A DNA stretch of 47,804 nt from a virus (Duplodnaviria > Heunggongvirae > Uroviricota > Caudoviricetes): IMG/VR virus record IMGVR_UViG_2541047728_000005; one strand, 5' to 3'. Below, piece by piece: positions 2,997 to 37,773 of this stretch. Under the pieces are notes generated by a model. The model ran no database searches. It had not been told where the DNA came from and saw nothing but the letters and a program-made list of their open reading frames with translations. The position numbers were made by a program, and so were the translations under genes. Numbering within the stretch: position 1 is the first letter of the stretch; the number at the start of each line of letters is the position of its first letter.

Positions 2997-3998
2997 TTAA
3001 TACCCATTAATTACTCTTCGGACATCAATCGAGGTGGTATAACCACTAGTCCCAATTGAATGCACAGCTTTCGATATAAGATATTTTCCAGAAAATGAAC
3101 CGAATCCCTCCAGATTTATAGTTACACCAGCTACCAATCTGGTGTCTCCAACCAATACTAAAGATCCGGTATTTTGATATCTATTTTTAAGCCGCAAAGC
3201 AGCCTTTGCCTTACGTTTTGCTTCATCTAAATTAGCTACCAGTTTTCTTATCTTAAGATTCGACCCTTCTTCTACGGATGGATCTACCCAAGTATACGAA
3301 AGCGACTTTCTTTTTTTAGGTACGCGATATTTGCACGTGCAACTTTTATACAAATCTGTAGATTGTGTGCTAAAGCTATATCTGATTATCTCATCAATAC
3401 CTAACGTAAGCGTAGCGATAGGATCTTTTTGCTCAAACATCTCTTGAGCAAATATTATTAATTGGCTATCAGTGACCTTTAACGACAACCCTTCATCCTG
3501 GCAAAGTCGATGGAGAAATTTTAAATCGCTTTCCTCCATTTGATCTTCACGCGCATAATATGGATTACTATCACCATCAATAAGAAACAACAGTTCAAGG
3601 TTAGCTAATTTAGCTATAGAAGTTGCTATATCTTTAAGAGTTGTTTTTTCCCATGCATTACTTTTTAAATCACGTCTAATGCCTGATGAAACAGGAACAG
3701 AAACAGCAGTTACCTCAACCACAGAAGGTGGTCCAGAGCAAGTTATGCCATCTACCTGGAATTTCCCGCACTCAAGGACGATTTGATTTATAGGCTTAAA
3801 GCTCAAATCAATAAAATCACCCTTTTTAGGTGTCCAGTCTCCAGACCATTTCCCATCATCATTTTTTAATATAATAGAAATATCATCGACCTGACCATCT
3901 TCATTATCTGTATAAGACATTGACAAAACATCAGGTGACATATGAGCGGTAATATTTACATTCTGATATATAACATCAAAAAGCGTTTTACGTAACAC
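2997..3998 (-). CDS. Tail protein D-like (P2 gpD / Mu gpP late control D family)
   Basis: 333-aa ORF downstream of tape measure and X-like gene, as in Mu/P2 tail operons. Confidence 0.55.
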   Translation of the reverse strand: MLRKTLFDVIYQNVNITAHMSPDVLSMSYTDNEDGQVDDISIILKNDDGKWSGDWTPKKGDFIDLSFKPINQIVLECGKFQVDGITCSGPPSVVEVTAVSVPVSSGIRRDLKSNAWEKTTLKDIATSIAKLANLELLFLIDGDSNPYYAREDQMEESDLKFLHRLCQDEGLSLKVTDSQLIIFAQEMFEQKDPIATLTLGIDEIIRYSFSTQSTDLYKSCTCKYRVPKKRKSLSYTWVDPSVEEGSNLKIRKLVANLDEAKRKAKAALRLKNRYQNTGSLVLVGDTRLVAGVTINLEGFGSFSGKYLISKAVHSIGTSGYTTSIDVRRVINGY

Positions 3999-24452: not shown

Positions 24453-24528
24453 TGGTGGCCCCTACCGGATTTGAACCGATGACCGTGCGATTATGAGTCG
24501 CCTGCTCTAACCACTGAGCTAAGGGGCC
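24453..24528 (-). tRNA. tRNA with CAT anticodon, tRNA-Ile2 (lysidine)-like; could alternatively be Met
   Basis: Minus-strand GGCCCCTTAGCTCAGTGGTTAGAGCAGGCGACTCATAATCGC...GGTTCAAATCCGGTAGGGGCCACCA; cloverleaf with 7-bp acceptor stem, encoded CCA; 5' 42 nt match my recollection of E. coli ileX. Confidence 0.85.
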
Positions 24529-33093: not shown

Positions 33094-33750
33094 ATGAAAA
33101 GCAACGACGAGAACATCAAGAAAGAAATAGGTCTGCGCATTCAGACTCTACGGAAACAATCCGGCATGACTGCCGGAGATCTCCAGCAAGTCACTGGAAT
33201 AGGCTTAAGCACCTTGCAGAACTATGAGGCCGGATTAAGACAACCATCTATACCTGCCATCAAGAAAATCGCGCACGCCCTGAAAGCATCAGCGCCTTAT
33301 ATCGCGTGCTTAACAGATAACCCGTTCCCACCCCAGAATACTAACGCTCCTGTTATTCCTGGGCTTGTAGCTATAAAAAATGACATAGCATCGCACGCCG
33401 GAGAAAAGCCAGTGCTGGCGATAGAACAGGAGATTCTACGAAGCAAGAACATCAACCCATCGTCTCTGTCAGTTCTCCAGAGCAACGATGAGTTAATGTC
33501 ACCAACAATATCCCCAGGCTCCCAAGTCCTGATTAATACAGACGATACAGAGATTCATGAGGGGATCTATGCCCTTGAAGACAGAAATGGCCTGGTTGTT
33601 TTGAGGCACTGTAGAGTCATACCGGGTGACAATGCTGTTATGCTGTCAACCGAAAGGGATGCTGAAATGAACACTAAGCATCTGAATAACGAGGAATTTA
33701 AGCGTTATAAAGTTCTTGGCCGCGTAGTTAGTGTTGTCAACTGGTTATGA
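33094..33750 (+). CDS. cI/LexA-like repressor (HTH_XRE plus S24-like C-terminal domain)
   Basis: 218 aa; N-terminal HTH (TAGDLQQVTGIGLSTLQNYEAG); C-terminal MSPTISPGSQVLINTDD...KVLGRVVSVVNWL resembles lambda cI/LexA C-domain. Confidence 0.8.
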   Translation: MKSNDENIKKEIGLRIQTLRKQSGMTAGDLQQVTGIGLSTLQNYEAGLRQPSIPAIKKIAHALKASAPYIACLTDNPFPPQNTNAPVIPGLVAIKNDIASHAGEKPVLAIEQEILRSKNINPSSLSVLQSNDELMSPTISPGSQVLINTDDTEIHEGIYALEDRNGLVVLRHCRVIPGDNAVMLSTERDAEMNTKHLNNEEFKRYKVLGRVVSVVNWL

Positions 33751-34346: not shown

Positions 34347-34367
34347 AAACACATGGAGTCTCGACAA

Positions 34368-35021
34368 ATGACTATCTCTGTAGGTATTTTCAACGGAAAA
34401 GGCGGCGTAACCAAATCAACAATTGCCCGTGCTTTAGCAGTTGCTTATGCAAAGGCCGGCTGGAATGTATGCCTGATCGATATGGATGTGCTTAACGGAA
34501 CGGTAACGCGTTGGGTACAACGCAGAATGGCCAACAATATCGAACCTGCAATCGCGGCGCAGCCGTGCGGCACGCCATCACAAGTCCAGAAAATCATCGA
34601 ATCAGAAGTATACGACCTGGTTATCGTCGATGGCGGTGCCTACGCATCTGAATCAGTACCGAAGCTCTCTGAATTTCTGGATATGGTTATTTTGCCAACC
34701 AGATTCTCTACCGATGACCTAGAAACCACCGTTAACACAGCTCACGGCATCGTTAAAAAGGGTGTGCCAATCAAGAAAATTTGCATGGTGTTCTCAGGCG
34801 CGGCTGAAAACGAAGCCGACTACATTGAAGCCCAAGAGTACCTAGCTAATACGCCATACTTTGTTGTCGATAAGTACATTCCCCACAAGCCAGCTCTGAG
34901 CAAAGCTCAGGATAAGGGCTTAAGCCTCATTGAATGCTCATACGTTGCGCCACGCAAAAAGGCAGACGACGTTATTCAGGGGATTATCAACCAGCTTGAG
35001 GCTCTGACTACTGCCGCGTAA
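34368..35021 (+). CDS. parA: ParA-family partition ATPase (small, type Ib-like)
   Basis: Deviant Walker A GKGGVTKST; ~217 aa from GGAG RBS-supported ATG at 34368. Confidence 0.85.
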   Translation: MTISVGIFNGKGGVTKSTIARALAVAYAKAGWNVCLIDMDVLNGTVTRWVQRRMANNIEPAIAAQPCGTPSQVQKIIESEVYDLVIVDGGAYASESVPKLSEFLDMVILPTRFSTDDLETTVNTAHGIVKKGVPIKKICMVFSGAAENEADYIEAQEYLANTPYFVVDKYIPHKPALSKAQDKGLSLIECSYVAPRKKADDVIQGIINQLEALTTAA

Positions 35022-35525: not shown

Positions 35526-35534
35526 ATTCAACCA

Positions 35535-35557
35535 TAAAAAAGGCCCCCGAAGGGGCC
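35535..35557 (-). terminator. Rho-independent terminator oriented for minus-strand transcripts
   Basis: Minus strand GGCCCC-ttc-GGGGGCC followed by TTTTTTT; 7 nt after stop of small ORF 35564..35686. Confidence 0.65.
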
Positions 35558-35563
35558 TAATCG

Positions 35564-35686
35564 CTACTTGCTGCTAATGTTTATCGTCACATTCAGAGCG
35601 TTATCAGTAATCTTCCAACCCTCCCCATGTGGCGTAAACAAAGCCCCAGTAACAACGATAAAAATACACATACAGTATTTTTTCAT
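35564..35686 (-). CDS. Small hydrophobic peptide (40 aa), candidate type I toxin-like or small membrane protein
   Basis: MKKYCMCIFIVVTGALFTPHGEGWKITDNALNVTINISSK; AAGGG RBS 7 nt upstream; strong terminator immediately downstream. Confidence 0.45.
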   Translation of the reverse strand: MKKYCMCIFIVVTGALFTPHGEGWKITDNALNVTINISSK

Positions 35687-35917
35687 TGTATGGCCCTTAC
35701 AGGCCGTTTCACGGCATCCCCACCGACGAAAACAACGCGAGAGCAAGCACGGCTGCTTGTGCTTGCATGTACGGCAACGGAGAATCCTCCCCTAAAGTCG
35801 GTGCCCGGGTGCGAATCGGCGGGAAGGTCCACAGGTATTTTACGATTATTTTAAGATTAGTAATAGGAAAGAAATTAAACGAAAAAACTCGTTTATTTTC
35901 ACAAAATCAGTAACCTA

Positions 35918-35932
35918 CCCACAATCTGTGAG
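35918..35932. promoter_or_regulatory. Operator-like site related to O2
   Basis: cccacaatctgtgag vs O2 accacatatcgtgag. Confidence 0.35.
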
Positions 35933-36004
35933 TTTGCAGGCACAACAAGAACCACAATTTTTTGAAGCATAATAGTGGACTATTATTACCTTTTGGGTAA
36001 AATT

Positions 36005-36111
36005 AACTTGCTGCTTGTGCTTGCGTGGTTGTTTATACAACGACGTTATGCTGAAAGGACCGCGAATCCGATCAGCACGAAAGAACCGTCCTCAATAGGG
36101 CGGTTTTTTTG
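36005..36111 (+). ncRNA. Candidate small RNA ending at intrinsic terminator; carries 15-nt repeat complementary to the opposite-strand transcript region at 35753..35767
   Basis: TAAAAT -10-like at 35998..36003; gctgcttgtgcttgc at 36010..36024 repeated at 35753..35767; hairpin CCGTCC-ucaaua-GGGCGG plus T7 at 36084..36111. Confidence 0.35.
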
Positions 36112-36179
36112 TTTCTGCCTACCAATAAACCCACGCTATGTGGTTGTCTCTGTTAAAATCCCGCCGTATTGACATGAAT

Positions 36180-36279
36180 GCGCCATTGGTGGACACTTTC
36201 CGAGCCGTAGCAAAATCTACGGTCGGGATTGGAACCCCGATAATCATCATGGCGCATACCGCGTTAGCGGTTTTTTTAT
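36180..36279 (+). ncRNA. Structured RNA segment ending at intrinsic terminator in antirepressor operon leader
   Basis: Hairpins CCGTAG-caaaat-CTACGG, CGGG-attggaa-CCCG, terminator ACCGC-gtta-GCGGT plus TTTTTTT at 36259..36279. Confidence 0.35.
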
Positions 36280-36442
36280 GCGTAAAGCACTGCTACACCC
36301 AAATTATGGTGGGGCGTGCGGGGGAGTCGTAAGACTCGCCGGATTCCATGGTGACCGGTAGTTCCAACCCTGTACGTCTCACCACCCAATGATTGGAACC
36401 AGACGGTGGTGAGTATCCTTAACCTTTAAGGGAACTATCACC

Positions 36443-36634
36443 ATGACAAACTTACCCCATGACTATTACGTCAACCTCGTAAAGATCCTTCTCAAGAAAG
36501 CCTCATACGCCGATAAATTCCGCCTAGCTGAAATCATCGAGCGCGAAGCTATGCGCATCGCCAGCAACGATAACGCTGTTTCTGACGCAAAAATCTCCCT
36601 CGTAACCAAAGTAGTTATGGGAGGTGCAAAATGA
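36443..36634 (+). CDS. Small protein preceding antirepressor (icd-like position)
   Basis: 63-aa ORF overlapping start of antirepressor gene (ATGA); AAGGGA RBS. Confidence 0.45.
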   Translation: MTNLPHDYYVNLVKILLKKASYADKFRLAEIIEREAMRIASNDNAVSDAKISLVTKVVMGGAK

Positions 36635-37773
36635 AAACGCTTCCGACCGTTAACACCCTACAGCCTATCTTGCATAACCAGATCCCCGTTATTACAACTG
36701 AACTTCTGGCGCAGTTATACGGAACAAAAATCAAAAACATTTCTGATAACTTTCTGAACAACACGACGCGATTCATAGCCGGAAAGCATTACTTTAAAAT
36801 TGAAAAAAACGAATTACGCGAGTTCAAGAACAGACCTGAAACAATCGGGTTAGTTGGTAAAAATGCCCGCTCCCTCATTCTCTGGACAGAACGCGGGGCT
36901 GCACGTCACGCCAAAATGCTCGAAACCGATCAGGCGTGGGATGTATTCGAACGGCTGGAAGACTGCTATTTCAGCCAGAACGCGCAAACGGCCGCGACCG
37001 TAACCGTCTCGCCAAACAATGCTCGTGAGGTTGTCGATACGCTCAACGCCAAACCGATGTTTTACATTAAAGTGTGCAACAACGAGCCACTCACAACCTC
37101 AGCCGATGTTGCCCAAGCATTCAGCACCACAAACAATTCCATCGTTATGGCCATCGATGCGCTACGCATTCCTCGCACGGCTGCGGCGCGTCACTTCTTT
37201 AAAGAGCAACGACCGCTGGAAGGAAGCGACCGCGAAATAACAATCTATCGCATGACAAAAGACGGATTTACCTTGCTCATGGAGAGCATCGACGGTCCAA
37301 GCGTGAAAGATATCAAGCTGGCCTACATTGAAGCCTTTAACGCTATCAGCAGCGTGTTAAAAACACAGTACGAGCGTGATCTGGCTAAACGACTGTACCA
37401 GGAAAAAACGATTATCCGCGCGGCAACAGAGCATAATCGGCTATTAACGGAACCGAACTACAGGAAGGAACTAATCAAGGCGTTTGACAAGGCAACAGGG
37501 AAAACCAAAGCGGCGCTAAATCTGCCAGCAATGACTCAGGAAAATGTGATATCAGCCTTACTTCTTGATCTGCTCAGAAACGCCAGAGCACTTATCAGCT
37601 TTGACGAAAACCTGAATCCTCAGCTCAAGCTACTACCACCGACAGGCAAAGTAGTCGACCAAGCTGATCACAACAGCATACTCAGCGTACTGGATGCAAA
37701 CCTGCCAGCCAAGACACTACAGGATCTGATAAAAACATGTGCTGATAAGCTGGCACAGAAAAGCAGACCATAA
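36631..37773 (+). CDS. Antirepressor-like protein (ORF6N/KilA-N-type N-terminal domain)
   Basis: 380 aa; N-terminal ITTELLAQLYGTKIKNISDNFLNNTTRFIAGKHYFKIEKNELREFK...LWTERGAARHAKMLETDQAWDVFERLEDCYF matches ORF6N-type antirepressor pattern. Confidence 0.65.
   Translation: MKTLPTVNTLQPILHNQIPVITTELLAQLYGTKIKNISDNFLNNTTRFIAGKHYFKIEKNELREFKNRPETIGLVGKNARSLILWTERGAARHAKMLETDQAWDVFERLEDCYFSQNAQTAATVTVSPNNAREVVDTLNAKPMFYIKVCNNEPLTTSADVAQAFSTTNNSIVMAIDALRIPRTAAARHFFKEQRPLEGSDREITIYRMTKDGFTLLMESIDGPSVKDIKLAYIEAFNAISSVLKTQYERDLAKRLYQEKTIIRAATEHNRLLTEPNYRKELIKAFDKATGKTKAALNLPAMTQENVISALLLDLLRNARALISFDENLNPQLKLLPPTGKVVDQADHNSILSVLDANLPAKTLQDLIKTCADKLAQKSRP

Follow-up and report, generated by a model that had tools for sequence, protein, structure and literature searches.

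Which RNAs precede the antirepressor gene of the IMG/VR virus record IMGVR_UViG_2541047728_000005, a putative phage-plasmid of Escherichia coli, and do they form one leader that controls it? The window, i.e., the whole stretch of 47,804 nucleotides (nt) analysed, contains at 35940–36442 (503 nt) a region that the initial annotation described as a single leader of about 450 nt. This leader was thought to carry two internal terminators in front of an icd-like open reading frame (ORF) and an antirepressor gene, and to recall the immI operon of phages P1 and P7 and the sar RNA of P22. The listed sequence features (two terminators, perfect stems) were all recovered, with positions that deviated from those given by no more than 1 nt. 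However, the region consists of two independent RNA modules, at ~35976–36111 and ~36169–36445. Very probably, 36169–37773 is an immI-type secondary immunity operon in which a C4 antisense RNA controls the antirepressor, and 35976–36111 encodes a separate TimR-like antitoxin. This reading is based on RNA homology, on the folds, on complementarities with their covariation, and on the organisation of the ORFs. A scan of the window with Rfam at gathering thresholds gave four matches, three of them (ryfA, isrK, and C4) in or beside the flagged region.

The C4 cassette and the antirepressor operon

The predicted features of the operon are as follows.

36169–36197 (+): predicted promoter of the IsrK-like/C4/ORF63/ant operon (−35 TTGACA 36169–36174, 17-nt spacer, −10 GACACT 36192–36197; start ~36204)
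36204–36279 (+): IsrK-like RNA, equivalent to the P1 a1/b1 segment (Rfam RF01394 isrK, 70.2 bits, gathering 50, model 1–77, match 36204–36277)
36204–36223 (+): IsrK hairpin 1
36224–36239 (+): IsrK hairpin 2, with a1 in the loop
36229–36235 (+): a1 TTGGAAC, in the loop of IsrK hairpin 2, pairing 7/7 with a′
36244–36252 (+): b1 TCATCATGG, 9 bp with b′, one of them G–U
36258–36278 (+): terminator 2, the intrinsic terminator of IsrK (ACCGCGTTAGCGGT followed by T7; consensus scan)
36302–36389 (+): C4 antisense RNA gene (Rfam RF01695, 84.3 bits, gathering 45, model 1–87, E = 3e-15)
36346–36354 (+): b′ CCATGGTGA, in the loop of C4 hairpin 2
36361–36367 (+): a′ GTTCCAA, in the single-stranded joint of C4
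36378–36413 (+): 9-bp hairpin with arms CTCACCACC (36378–36386) and GGTGGTGAG (36405–36413) and an 18-nt loop carrying a2
36393–36399 (+): a2 TTGGAAC, 7 nt past the predicted C4 3′ end, pairing 7/7 with a′
36428–36446 (+): ORF63 initiation region, with the Shine–Dalgarno (SD) sequence AAGGGA at 36428–36433, b2 TCACCATG(A) at 36438–36446, and the ATG at 36443–36445
36443–36634 (+): ORF63, a leader ORF of 63 amino acids (aa), in the position of P1 icd (PHROG 7886, function unknown)
36631–37773 (+): antirepressor gene ant, 380 aa (ORF6N PF10543, 4.5e-21; Rha PF09669, 1.5e-12; anti-repressor PHROGs)

The suggested resemblance to immI proved to be true homology at the RNA level, resting on a full-length C4 gene that had itself gone unrecognised, on the a1/b1 and a2/b2 sites, and on a small ORF that overlaps the antirepressor gene by ATGA. 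P1's own C4 scored 68.8 bits on RF01695, lower than the RNA of the window. By homology with the annotated 77-nt C4 of P1, the mature RNA is predicted to span ~36308–36386 (79 nt). It folded with −44.3 kcal/mol, and its 5′ flank, AAUUAU/GGUGGGG, is the same as in P1. According to what Hartmann and colleagues reportedly found in 1995, P1 C4 is excised from a precursor, its 5′ end being made by RNase P, as a stable RNA of ~77 nt.

The perfect complements of a′ in the window lie at 36229 (a1) and 36393 (a2). The b2 segment 36438–36445 paired 8/8 with b′ (36347–36354) and covers the ORF63 ATG at 36443. The region had been called highly structured, and this was confirmed for both modules: 36196–36460 folded with z = −4.6, and a 105-nt RNA enclosing terminator 1 of the upstream module gave −43.6 kcal/mol and z = −5.6 (against 200 shuffles).

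In the annotated P1 record, the order is operator, promoters P2c4 and P1c4, a1 and b1, c4 (77 nt), a2 and b2, icd, and ant1. The P1 sites are a1 TTGACAG, b1 GTTAGTGC, a2 TTGACAG, and b2 GTTAGTGA, the last over the SD, and the ant1 start overlaps the icd stop by 4 nt. The window shares with P1/P7 immI the order promoter, a1/b1, C4, a2/b2, small ORF, and antirepressor gene with an ATGA overlap. C4 is homologous, with a′ in the single-stranded joint and b′ in the hairpin-2 loop; b1 and C4 have a terminator-like hairpin between them, and the 3′ strand of C4 forms, with downstream sequence, a hairpin that encloses a2. Specificity alleles (known as heteroimmunity in P1/P7) and a plasmid prophage as the host element are likewise common to both. 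The a and b sequences are different, and b2 lies over the AUG in the window, whereas it lies over the SD in P1.

The IsrK-like RNA overlaps a match to the c4-a1b1 model (RF03163), which scored 38.2 bits, under its gathering value of 46.7. At the P1 locus itself, the c4-a1b1 model reached 51 bits and the isrK model 35 bits, including a terminator-like hairpin. Since P1 also has such a hairpin at this place, terminator 2 is regarded as an ancestral part of the cassette.

We infer that TTGACA-17-GACACT is the promoter of the operon and that transcription starts near 36204, the first base of the isrK model. TTGACA occurred at the same position in 14/14 leader variants, even where the upstream sequence was unrelated, and 36169–36174 is the point at which otherwise unrelated upstream sequences become alignable among cassettes. 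Relatives have better −10 boxes (TATATT, TATCTT, TAGATT), and the site is placed relative to a1/b1 as P1c4/P51b is in P1. With the start near 36204, the true leader into ORF63 is most likely about 240 nt long, instead of the 450 nt first proposed. Terminator 2 belongs to it as an IsrK-type terminator, as had been claimed, but terminator 1 ends the upstream TimR-like small RNA (sRNA).

ORF63 corresponds to P1 icd in position only. The label ‘icd-like’ therefore stands for its place in the operon and not for its sequence, as ORF63 gave no alignment with P1 Icd (PHROG 7886 vs. 1426). Differences between ORF63 and its relatives were distributed over the first, second, and third codon positions as 3/3/20, 7/4/30, and 19/7/37. 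This concentration at third positions indicates purifying selection and a real gene. A scan of genome contigs for ORF63 gave a single locus, in Yersinia similis. The ant start overlaps the ORF63 stop (ATGA), and the AAATGA junction was kept in all intact homologues. From this overlap, and by analogy with P1 and with orf45-anrP of Gifsy-1, translation of ant probably depends on that of ORF63. Ant showed no similarity to P1 Ant1 (E = 5.2). By sequence, the homology to P1 thus appears to lie in the RNA cassette and in the logic of the operon and does not extend to the proteins.

Covariance analysis across related elements, which had been proposed as a check, supported the pairings. The comparison set contained 106 distinct sequences, obtained by a pattern scan of viral contigs together with annotated phages, and the C4 3′ end could be placed in 105. 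In 104 of these 105 loci, an exact reverse complement of the a′ heptamer was present twice, once in the IsrK region upstream and once at most 30 nt downstream. The a′/a1/a2 set comprised 16 alleles, with 0/6956 cross-allele matches; P1 (CTGTCAA) and GTTCGAA are two further a′ alleles. The C4 hairpin-2 loop (b′) showed 36 alleles, and the complementarity of b′ with b1 and b2 was allele-specific, with own-target helix scores of 7.8 (b1) and 9.3 (b2) compared with cross-allele scores of 5.6 and 6.1. The a′–a2 and b pairings were measured alignment-free with cross-allele controls; the MAFFT alignment put the a2 region out of register.

In an alignment of 51 sequences, pairing in the IsrK + C4 fold amounted to 96.1%, and both partners had changed in 20 pairs; 0/500 shuffles reached these values. 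The 17-bp basal stem of C4 was 99.1% paired (7 pairs changed on both sides), hairpin 1 was 96.8% paired with 5/5 pairs covarying, and hairpin 2 was 98.8% paired. Covariation also supported the IsrK hairpins, and the a1–a′ helix was 98.4% paired with 5/7 pairs covarying. Most C4 family members have b2 over the SD, 15–20 nt before the ATG, and the ORF63 subfamily has it over the ATG itself. A locus encoding an ORF63 homologue had IsrK + C4, or an Xcc1-type RNA, upstream in 14/14 cases.

Within the phage-plasmid family, the window and vB_YpM_39 carry the alleles GTTCCAA + CCATGGTGA, vB_YpM_41 and locus L004 carry ACGCCAA + TCATGATGA, and L005 and L013 carry AGGCTAA + GTCATTGTG; L007 and L008 are mixed (recombinants). 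Determinants of immunity specificity, as in P1 and P7, would be expected to show such a pattern (PMC12197685).

In the window’s allele only, the SD-proximal GGAACTATC (36431–36439) is complementary to GGTAGTTCC of C4 (36357–36365, overlapping a′). Together with b′, this gives a bipartite complementarity of 15 nt from the SD through the AUG. The extended pairing with the SD region is probably coincidental, because L004 keeps GGAACTATC with a different a′ allele.

The 9-bp hairpin had been placed at 36378–36414, just before the ribosome-binding site. It is a genuine conserved feature of the family, but its end is 36413 and it is not free-standing. Its 5′ arm forms the last 9 nt of the mature C4 as predicted from the annotated P1 ends, and seven of these belong to the 3′ strand of the C4 basal stem. 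Perfect 9-bp stems are not rare in the window (35, compared with 5.5 ± 2.9 in Markov-simulated sequence), so the significance of the hairpin comes from its conservation, not from its existence. About 103 of the 106 related sequences had an equivalent helix, which comprised 8.6 pairs on average. In the 51-sequence alignment its cells were 89% paired, and 7/9 pairs had at least one double-sided change. Compensatory variants include CCACCACC/GGTGGTGG and GTCCATCACC/GGTGATGGGT; the P1 equivalent, CCTGCCACC/GGTAGCAGG, has three pairs exchanged relative to the window and one mismatch.

The isolated hairpin folded with −16.1 kcal/mol. It excludes the lower part of the 17-bp C4 stem, and precursor folds with native C4 and with the hairpin forced were 2.8 kcal/mol apart. 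The 3′ arm can pair instead with TCACC (36438–36442), just before the AUG and around an inner hairpin in which the SD is buried. With the 3′ strand of C4 left out, the 3′ arm paired with a partner beside or overlapping b2 in 76/77 distinct leaders. On the basis of these folds, the conserved GGUGGUGA element 3′ of a2 might act throughout the family, P1 included, as a cis toggle not described before, which would link the maturation of C4 to the way in which its own target is presented and masked from translation; we offer this as a speculation that is rather unlikely to hold. In the precursor, the partner of GGUGGUGA would be the C4 stem’s 3′ strand, and a2 would be displayed in the loop. Once C4 has folded or been excised, it would pair with sequence beside or overlapping b2, the SD, and the AUG. 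Were the toggle true, the hairpin would be a functional switch and no by-product, in P1 and here.

The divergent ryfA/timP toxin and its TimR-like RNA

The first module of the flagged region and its neighbour contain the following predicted features.

35536–35832 (−): ryfA/timP-like type I toxin mRNA, just outside the flagged region (Rfam RF00126, 141.8 bits, gathering 80, full model 1–296)
35976–36003 (+): promoter-like site of the TimR-like sRNA (TGGACT, 16-nt spacer, TAAAAT; 9/12 in the consensus scan; start predicted at ~36010)
36010–36111 (+): putative TimR-like antitoxin sRNA of about 100 nt, ending in terminator 1 (36084–36111)

The gene ryfA has been renamed timP and encodes a toxic membrane protein of 38 aa. 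Its type I toxin mRNA is repressed by the divergently transcribed sRNA TimR, which has 5′ complementarity to the 5′ untranslated region (5′UTR) of timP, ends in an intrinsic terminator, and adjoins every enterobacterial timP gene examined (PMC7667032). The window shows the same arrangement as timP/timR of Salmonella and E. coli, with a ryfA mRNA carrying a small hydrophobic ORF and a divergent sRNA with 5′ complementarity to the toxin 5′UTR and an intrinsic terminator. It differs in being borne by a plasmid or phage. The ORF of the ryfA RNA has 40 aa (35564–35686, minus strand, MKKYCMCIFIVVTGALFTPHGEGWKITDNALNVTINISSK), and its N-terminal half is hydrophobic.

A direct repeat of 15 nt, GCTGCTTGTGCTTGC, has only two copies in the window, at 35752 in the ryfA 5′ region and at 36010, both on the same DNA strand. 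As the two RNAs are divergent, the ryfA and TimR-like RNAs are therefore complementary: the sRNA 5′ end (36010–36024) matches the ryfA mRNA at 35752–35766 perfectly over 15 nt, and 18/19 when extended. The two copies change together in six related plasmids/phages, e.g., CCGCTTGTGCTTGCGT twice in JE86_p3 and CTTACTTGTGC.TACGAG twice in L013. TGGAC and the −10 region were kept in 6 related plasmids whose flanks had diverged, and the site at 35976–36003 is the presumed promoter of the sRNA. Terminator 1 has a stem at ~36077–36104 followed by U7 ending at 36111; the simple consensus scan did not list it, and it was clear in the fold.

By homology of ryfA, arrangement, and covariation, 35976–36111 is assigned as the TimR-like antisense antitoxin of the divergent ryfA/timP toxin, and appears unrelated to the antirepressor operon. 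The TimR-like sequence matched no Rfam family. BLASTN of 35536–36116 against 5426 complete E. coli genomes found the module in 72 of them, including the reference strain ATCC 25922, and 73/74 places were on plasmids. Chromosomal ryfA/timR relatives were not recovered in this search, which matched only the plasmid family, and it demonstrated no sequence homology of the TimR-like RNA to chromosomal TimR. Because nearly all matches are plasmid-borne, a chromosomal ryfA, if those genomes have one, is too diverged for this detection. Among the 30 records listed, no gene for ryfA or the TimR-like RNA was annotated under the match.

The timP/TimR-like type I toxin-antitoxin, plasmid- or phage-borne, sits between the par genes and the immunity operon. 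Sub-threshold Rfam matches at 35989–36115 (RNAI 26 bits, Phe leader 23, rnk leader 17) were rejected; they fell far under gathering, and the TimR-like hairpins and terminator account for them.

Several relatives separate the two modules. An oppositely oriented helix-turn-helix (HTH) gene of ~0.55 kb directly follows terminator 1 in vB_YpM_39, the ATCC 25922 plasmid, and E. albertii plasmids, and the loci L010, L016, and L017 are among several that have the IsrK-C4-ORF63 cassette without ryfA and TimR. In vB_YpM_39 (L002:4618-5157, minus strand) and the ATCC 25922 plasmid (L145:1750-2322, minus strand), the extra gene occupies exactly the interval from the TimR-like terminator to the IsrK/C4 promoter, which corresponds to ~36112–36168 of the window. 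This promoter may have a further regulator in the HTH gene.

A model of antirepressor control and its rivals

According to the proposed model, transcription would start near 36204, and many transcripts would stop at 36258–36278, giving an IsrK-like RNA of ~75 nt that displays a1 and b1. From the read-through RNA, C4 would be released as a stable tRNA-like molecule of ~79 nt, with RNase P making the 5′ cut as it does in P1. Its b′ (hairpin loop) and a′ (single-stranded joint) would then pair with b2 (36438–36446) and a2 (36393–36399) in the mRNA. As b2 covers the ORF63 AUG, C4 would block ORF63 translation, and ant would stay silent by translational coupling to ORF63, probably with Rho polarity as in P1, so that the CI-like repressor remains active. 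Control in P1 is said, after Biere and co-workers (1992), to consist of translational repression followed by premature termination. The IsrK-like RNA, with a1 and b1 as decoys, could, like IsrK in Gifsy-1, titrate C4 or change the structure of the read-through RNA. The a/b sequences would set immunity specificity, sister elements carrying other alleles. Terminator-based attenuation (by the IsrK-type terminator) and antisense control, both of which had been suggested, are thus both plausible. The c4 mechanism has been reviewed (PMC12197685, PMC8198154).

Several points weigh against C4 repression as the governing mechanism. The −10 GACACT is weak (3/6 consensus) and the promoter consensus scan did not call the site. 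Minimum-energy folds of the whole precursor paired a1/b1 with a′/b′ in cis and disrupted the C4 stem. The leader ORF (PHROG 7886) and Ant (ORF6N + Rha) appear not to be homologous to P1 Icd and Ant1, and for this element the RNA ends, the processing, and the sign and strength of regulation are predictions from sequence. Furthermore, in Gifsy-1 of Salmonella the same RNA family gives net activation by the short IsrK RNA (PMC4825925).

The Gifsy-1 locus isrK-orf45(STnc1160)-anrP resembles the organisation predicted for the window: an IsrK RNA has its own terminator, read-through enters the operon of the antirepressor, an RNA of the C4 family is processed further downstream, and a small ORF is translationally coupled to the antirepressor gene. 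The N-terminal region of the antirepressor shows ~90% DNA identity to Gifsy-1 over ~300 nt. It is conceivable that positive control of this type dominates, the read-through RNA being silent until the short IsrK-like RNA opens it in trans, with C4 mainly a structural part or by-product. The isrK score of 70.2 bits, terminator included, agrees with this, as do the cis pairing in the precursor fold and the leader, in which, even by itself, the SD is hidden within an inner hairpin and the outer helix ends at the AUG (−19.0 kcal/mol). In Gifsy-1, IsrK in trans activates orf45-anrP >100-fold, and processed STnc1160 sits where C4 lies (PMC4825925). Such a function of IsrK has been demonstrated for Gifsy-1 only, and the gene order of the window fits it. 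The published Gifsy-1 model is IsrK activation and not C4-a2/b2 repression; however, orf45 overlaps the C4-like RNA and abuts anrP, whereas the window has a separate ORF of 63 aa after C4, as in P1. Moreover, a2 and b2 are perfectly kept and covary with C4, which repression of the mRNA by C4 predicts and an IsrK–C4 interaction alone would not need. We consider dominant positive control possible but doubtful. The two models are compatible, with IsrK as an anti-antisense RNA.

The originally proposed single leader of ~450 nt, starting at ~35940–35980 and using the two terminators as successive attenuators of antirepressor transcription, is improbable. Both terminators are on the plus strand and upstream of ORF63, and the TimR-like terminator may let some transcripts through into the operon. 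Terminator 1 is nevertheless assigned to the toxin-antitoxin because its unit has its own promoter-like site and a 5′ end whose complementarity to ryfA covaries, because the HTH gene is inserted behind it, and because cassettes exist without ryfA and TimR; TTGACA at 36169 also marks the start of homology among cassettes. The comparison with P22 sar fared still worse. There, a short opposite-strand RNA within the leader or early ORF would pair with the ant mRNA. Sar is a known regulator of P22 ant and an antisense RNA limiting antirepressor translation (PMC12197685), which makes for a general analogy only. It is a cis-antisense RNA from the opposite strand, and the consensus scan found no minus-strand promoter-like or terminator-like site in 36000–36700. 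No minus-strand Rfam match attained gathering score in this region, the sub-threshold ones all lying at 35526–35664 around the ryfA RNA terminator, and the conserved covarying structure is all on the plus strand. Control of the sar type is thus highly improbable, and C4 antisense control of ORF63 and ant remains the preferred reading.

The phage-plasmid and related cassettes

A queried 2.3 kb of the window was 100% identical to the circular E. coli plasmid pMB9698_3 (NZ_CP103471.1, 47,715 bp), the annotation of which includes RepA, ParA, a RelE/ParE toxin-antitoxin pair, and a Ref nuclease. The first ~22 kb showed 99.7% identity to the structural module (terminase, portal, sheath, tape measure) of Escherichia phage vB_EcoM-613R2 and 98.7% to the Yersinia phages vB_YpM_39, 41, and 44. 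With a phage structural module and plasmid genes, the window is by its sequence taken to be a ~47.7-kb E. coli phage-plasmid of the myovirus type. The region is carried by about 69 PLSDB plasmids. Just upstream of the flagged region lie a CI/LexA-like repressor gene (33094–33750, plus strand; HTH_3 and weak Peptidase_S24) and the following gene.

34353–35021 (+): ParA gene

The CI-like repressor is the likely target of the antirepressor. This HTH-S24 protein is different from P1 C1, and the ~48-kb myovirus-plasmid is unrelated to P1.

Similar cassettes, with C4 and isrK upstream of ant/BRO genes, occur in lambdoid, Stx, and APSE phages. They share IsrK and C4, the GGTGGTGA element, and the a2/b2 sites with the window, but they are without a leader ORF, and it is the antirepressor gene’s own SD that b2 overlaps. 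The C4 cassette is thus a portable RNA module found before unrelated antirepressor genes, directly or via an unrelated leader ORF. Phage P4 offers a more distant parallel: its CI RNA with seqA/seqC is also an antisense RNA processed from the leader of the operon that it controls, with complementary sites upstream and downstream, but it acts by transcription termination. The P4 CI RNA has been called a structural analogue of IsrK (PMC4825925).

The locus is a clear further member of the P1-type C4 systems, and the standard models of Rfam suffice to detect it. It leaves the understanding of how C4 systems function unchanged, and its value is in annotation and in the family-wide comparison. For a family of ~48-kb phage-plasmids, the analysis provides a concrete map of the switch that is predicted to govern secondary immunity. 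The differing a/b alleles predict heteroimmunity groups like P1 vs. P7, with a bearing on superinfection, plasmid co-residence, and induction. New are the conserved toggle-like element, the position of b2 over the AUG after a leader ORF that is not Icd, and the Xcc1-type RNA in the C4 slot of two relatives.

In these two relatives (L014:1279-1497 and L015:1273-1497), an sRNA-Xcc1 RNA (RF02221, 76 and 70 bits) takes the C4 slot before ORF63 homologues that are 71–73% identical. Each of the two RNAs contains a pair of elements that are matched by complementary copies on either side of the RNA, and the copy on the downstream side lies over the SD. The elements are GTTTCGA and CTTTTGC in L014 and GTTTCTAG and CGTGAAG in L015, and elements and targets differ together between the loci. 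This suggests, from sequence, that Xcc1-type RNAs are functional analogues of C4.

The viral contig L132 has two IsrK-C4 cassettes ~1 kb apart (2305–2534 and 3310–3539). These tandem immunity cassettes differ in their a′ alleles (GTTCCAA vs. GTGCAAA) and have the same b′ loop.

None of these RNAs is annotated in the public annotation of the phage-plasmid family. For the identical plasmid (L001:7558-8274), the annotation of the antirepressor is confined to its C-terminal part (‘Rha family’), although the window has an intact ORF of 380 aa. In E. coli strain 222 (L146:2276-2961), the antirepressor is annotated as two pseudogene fragments, and some family members may have lost Ant. The phage-plasmid also carries a tRNA-Met gene (CAT anticodon) at 24453–24528 on the minus strand.

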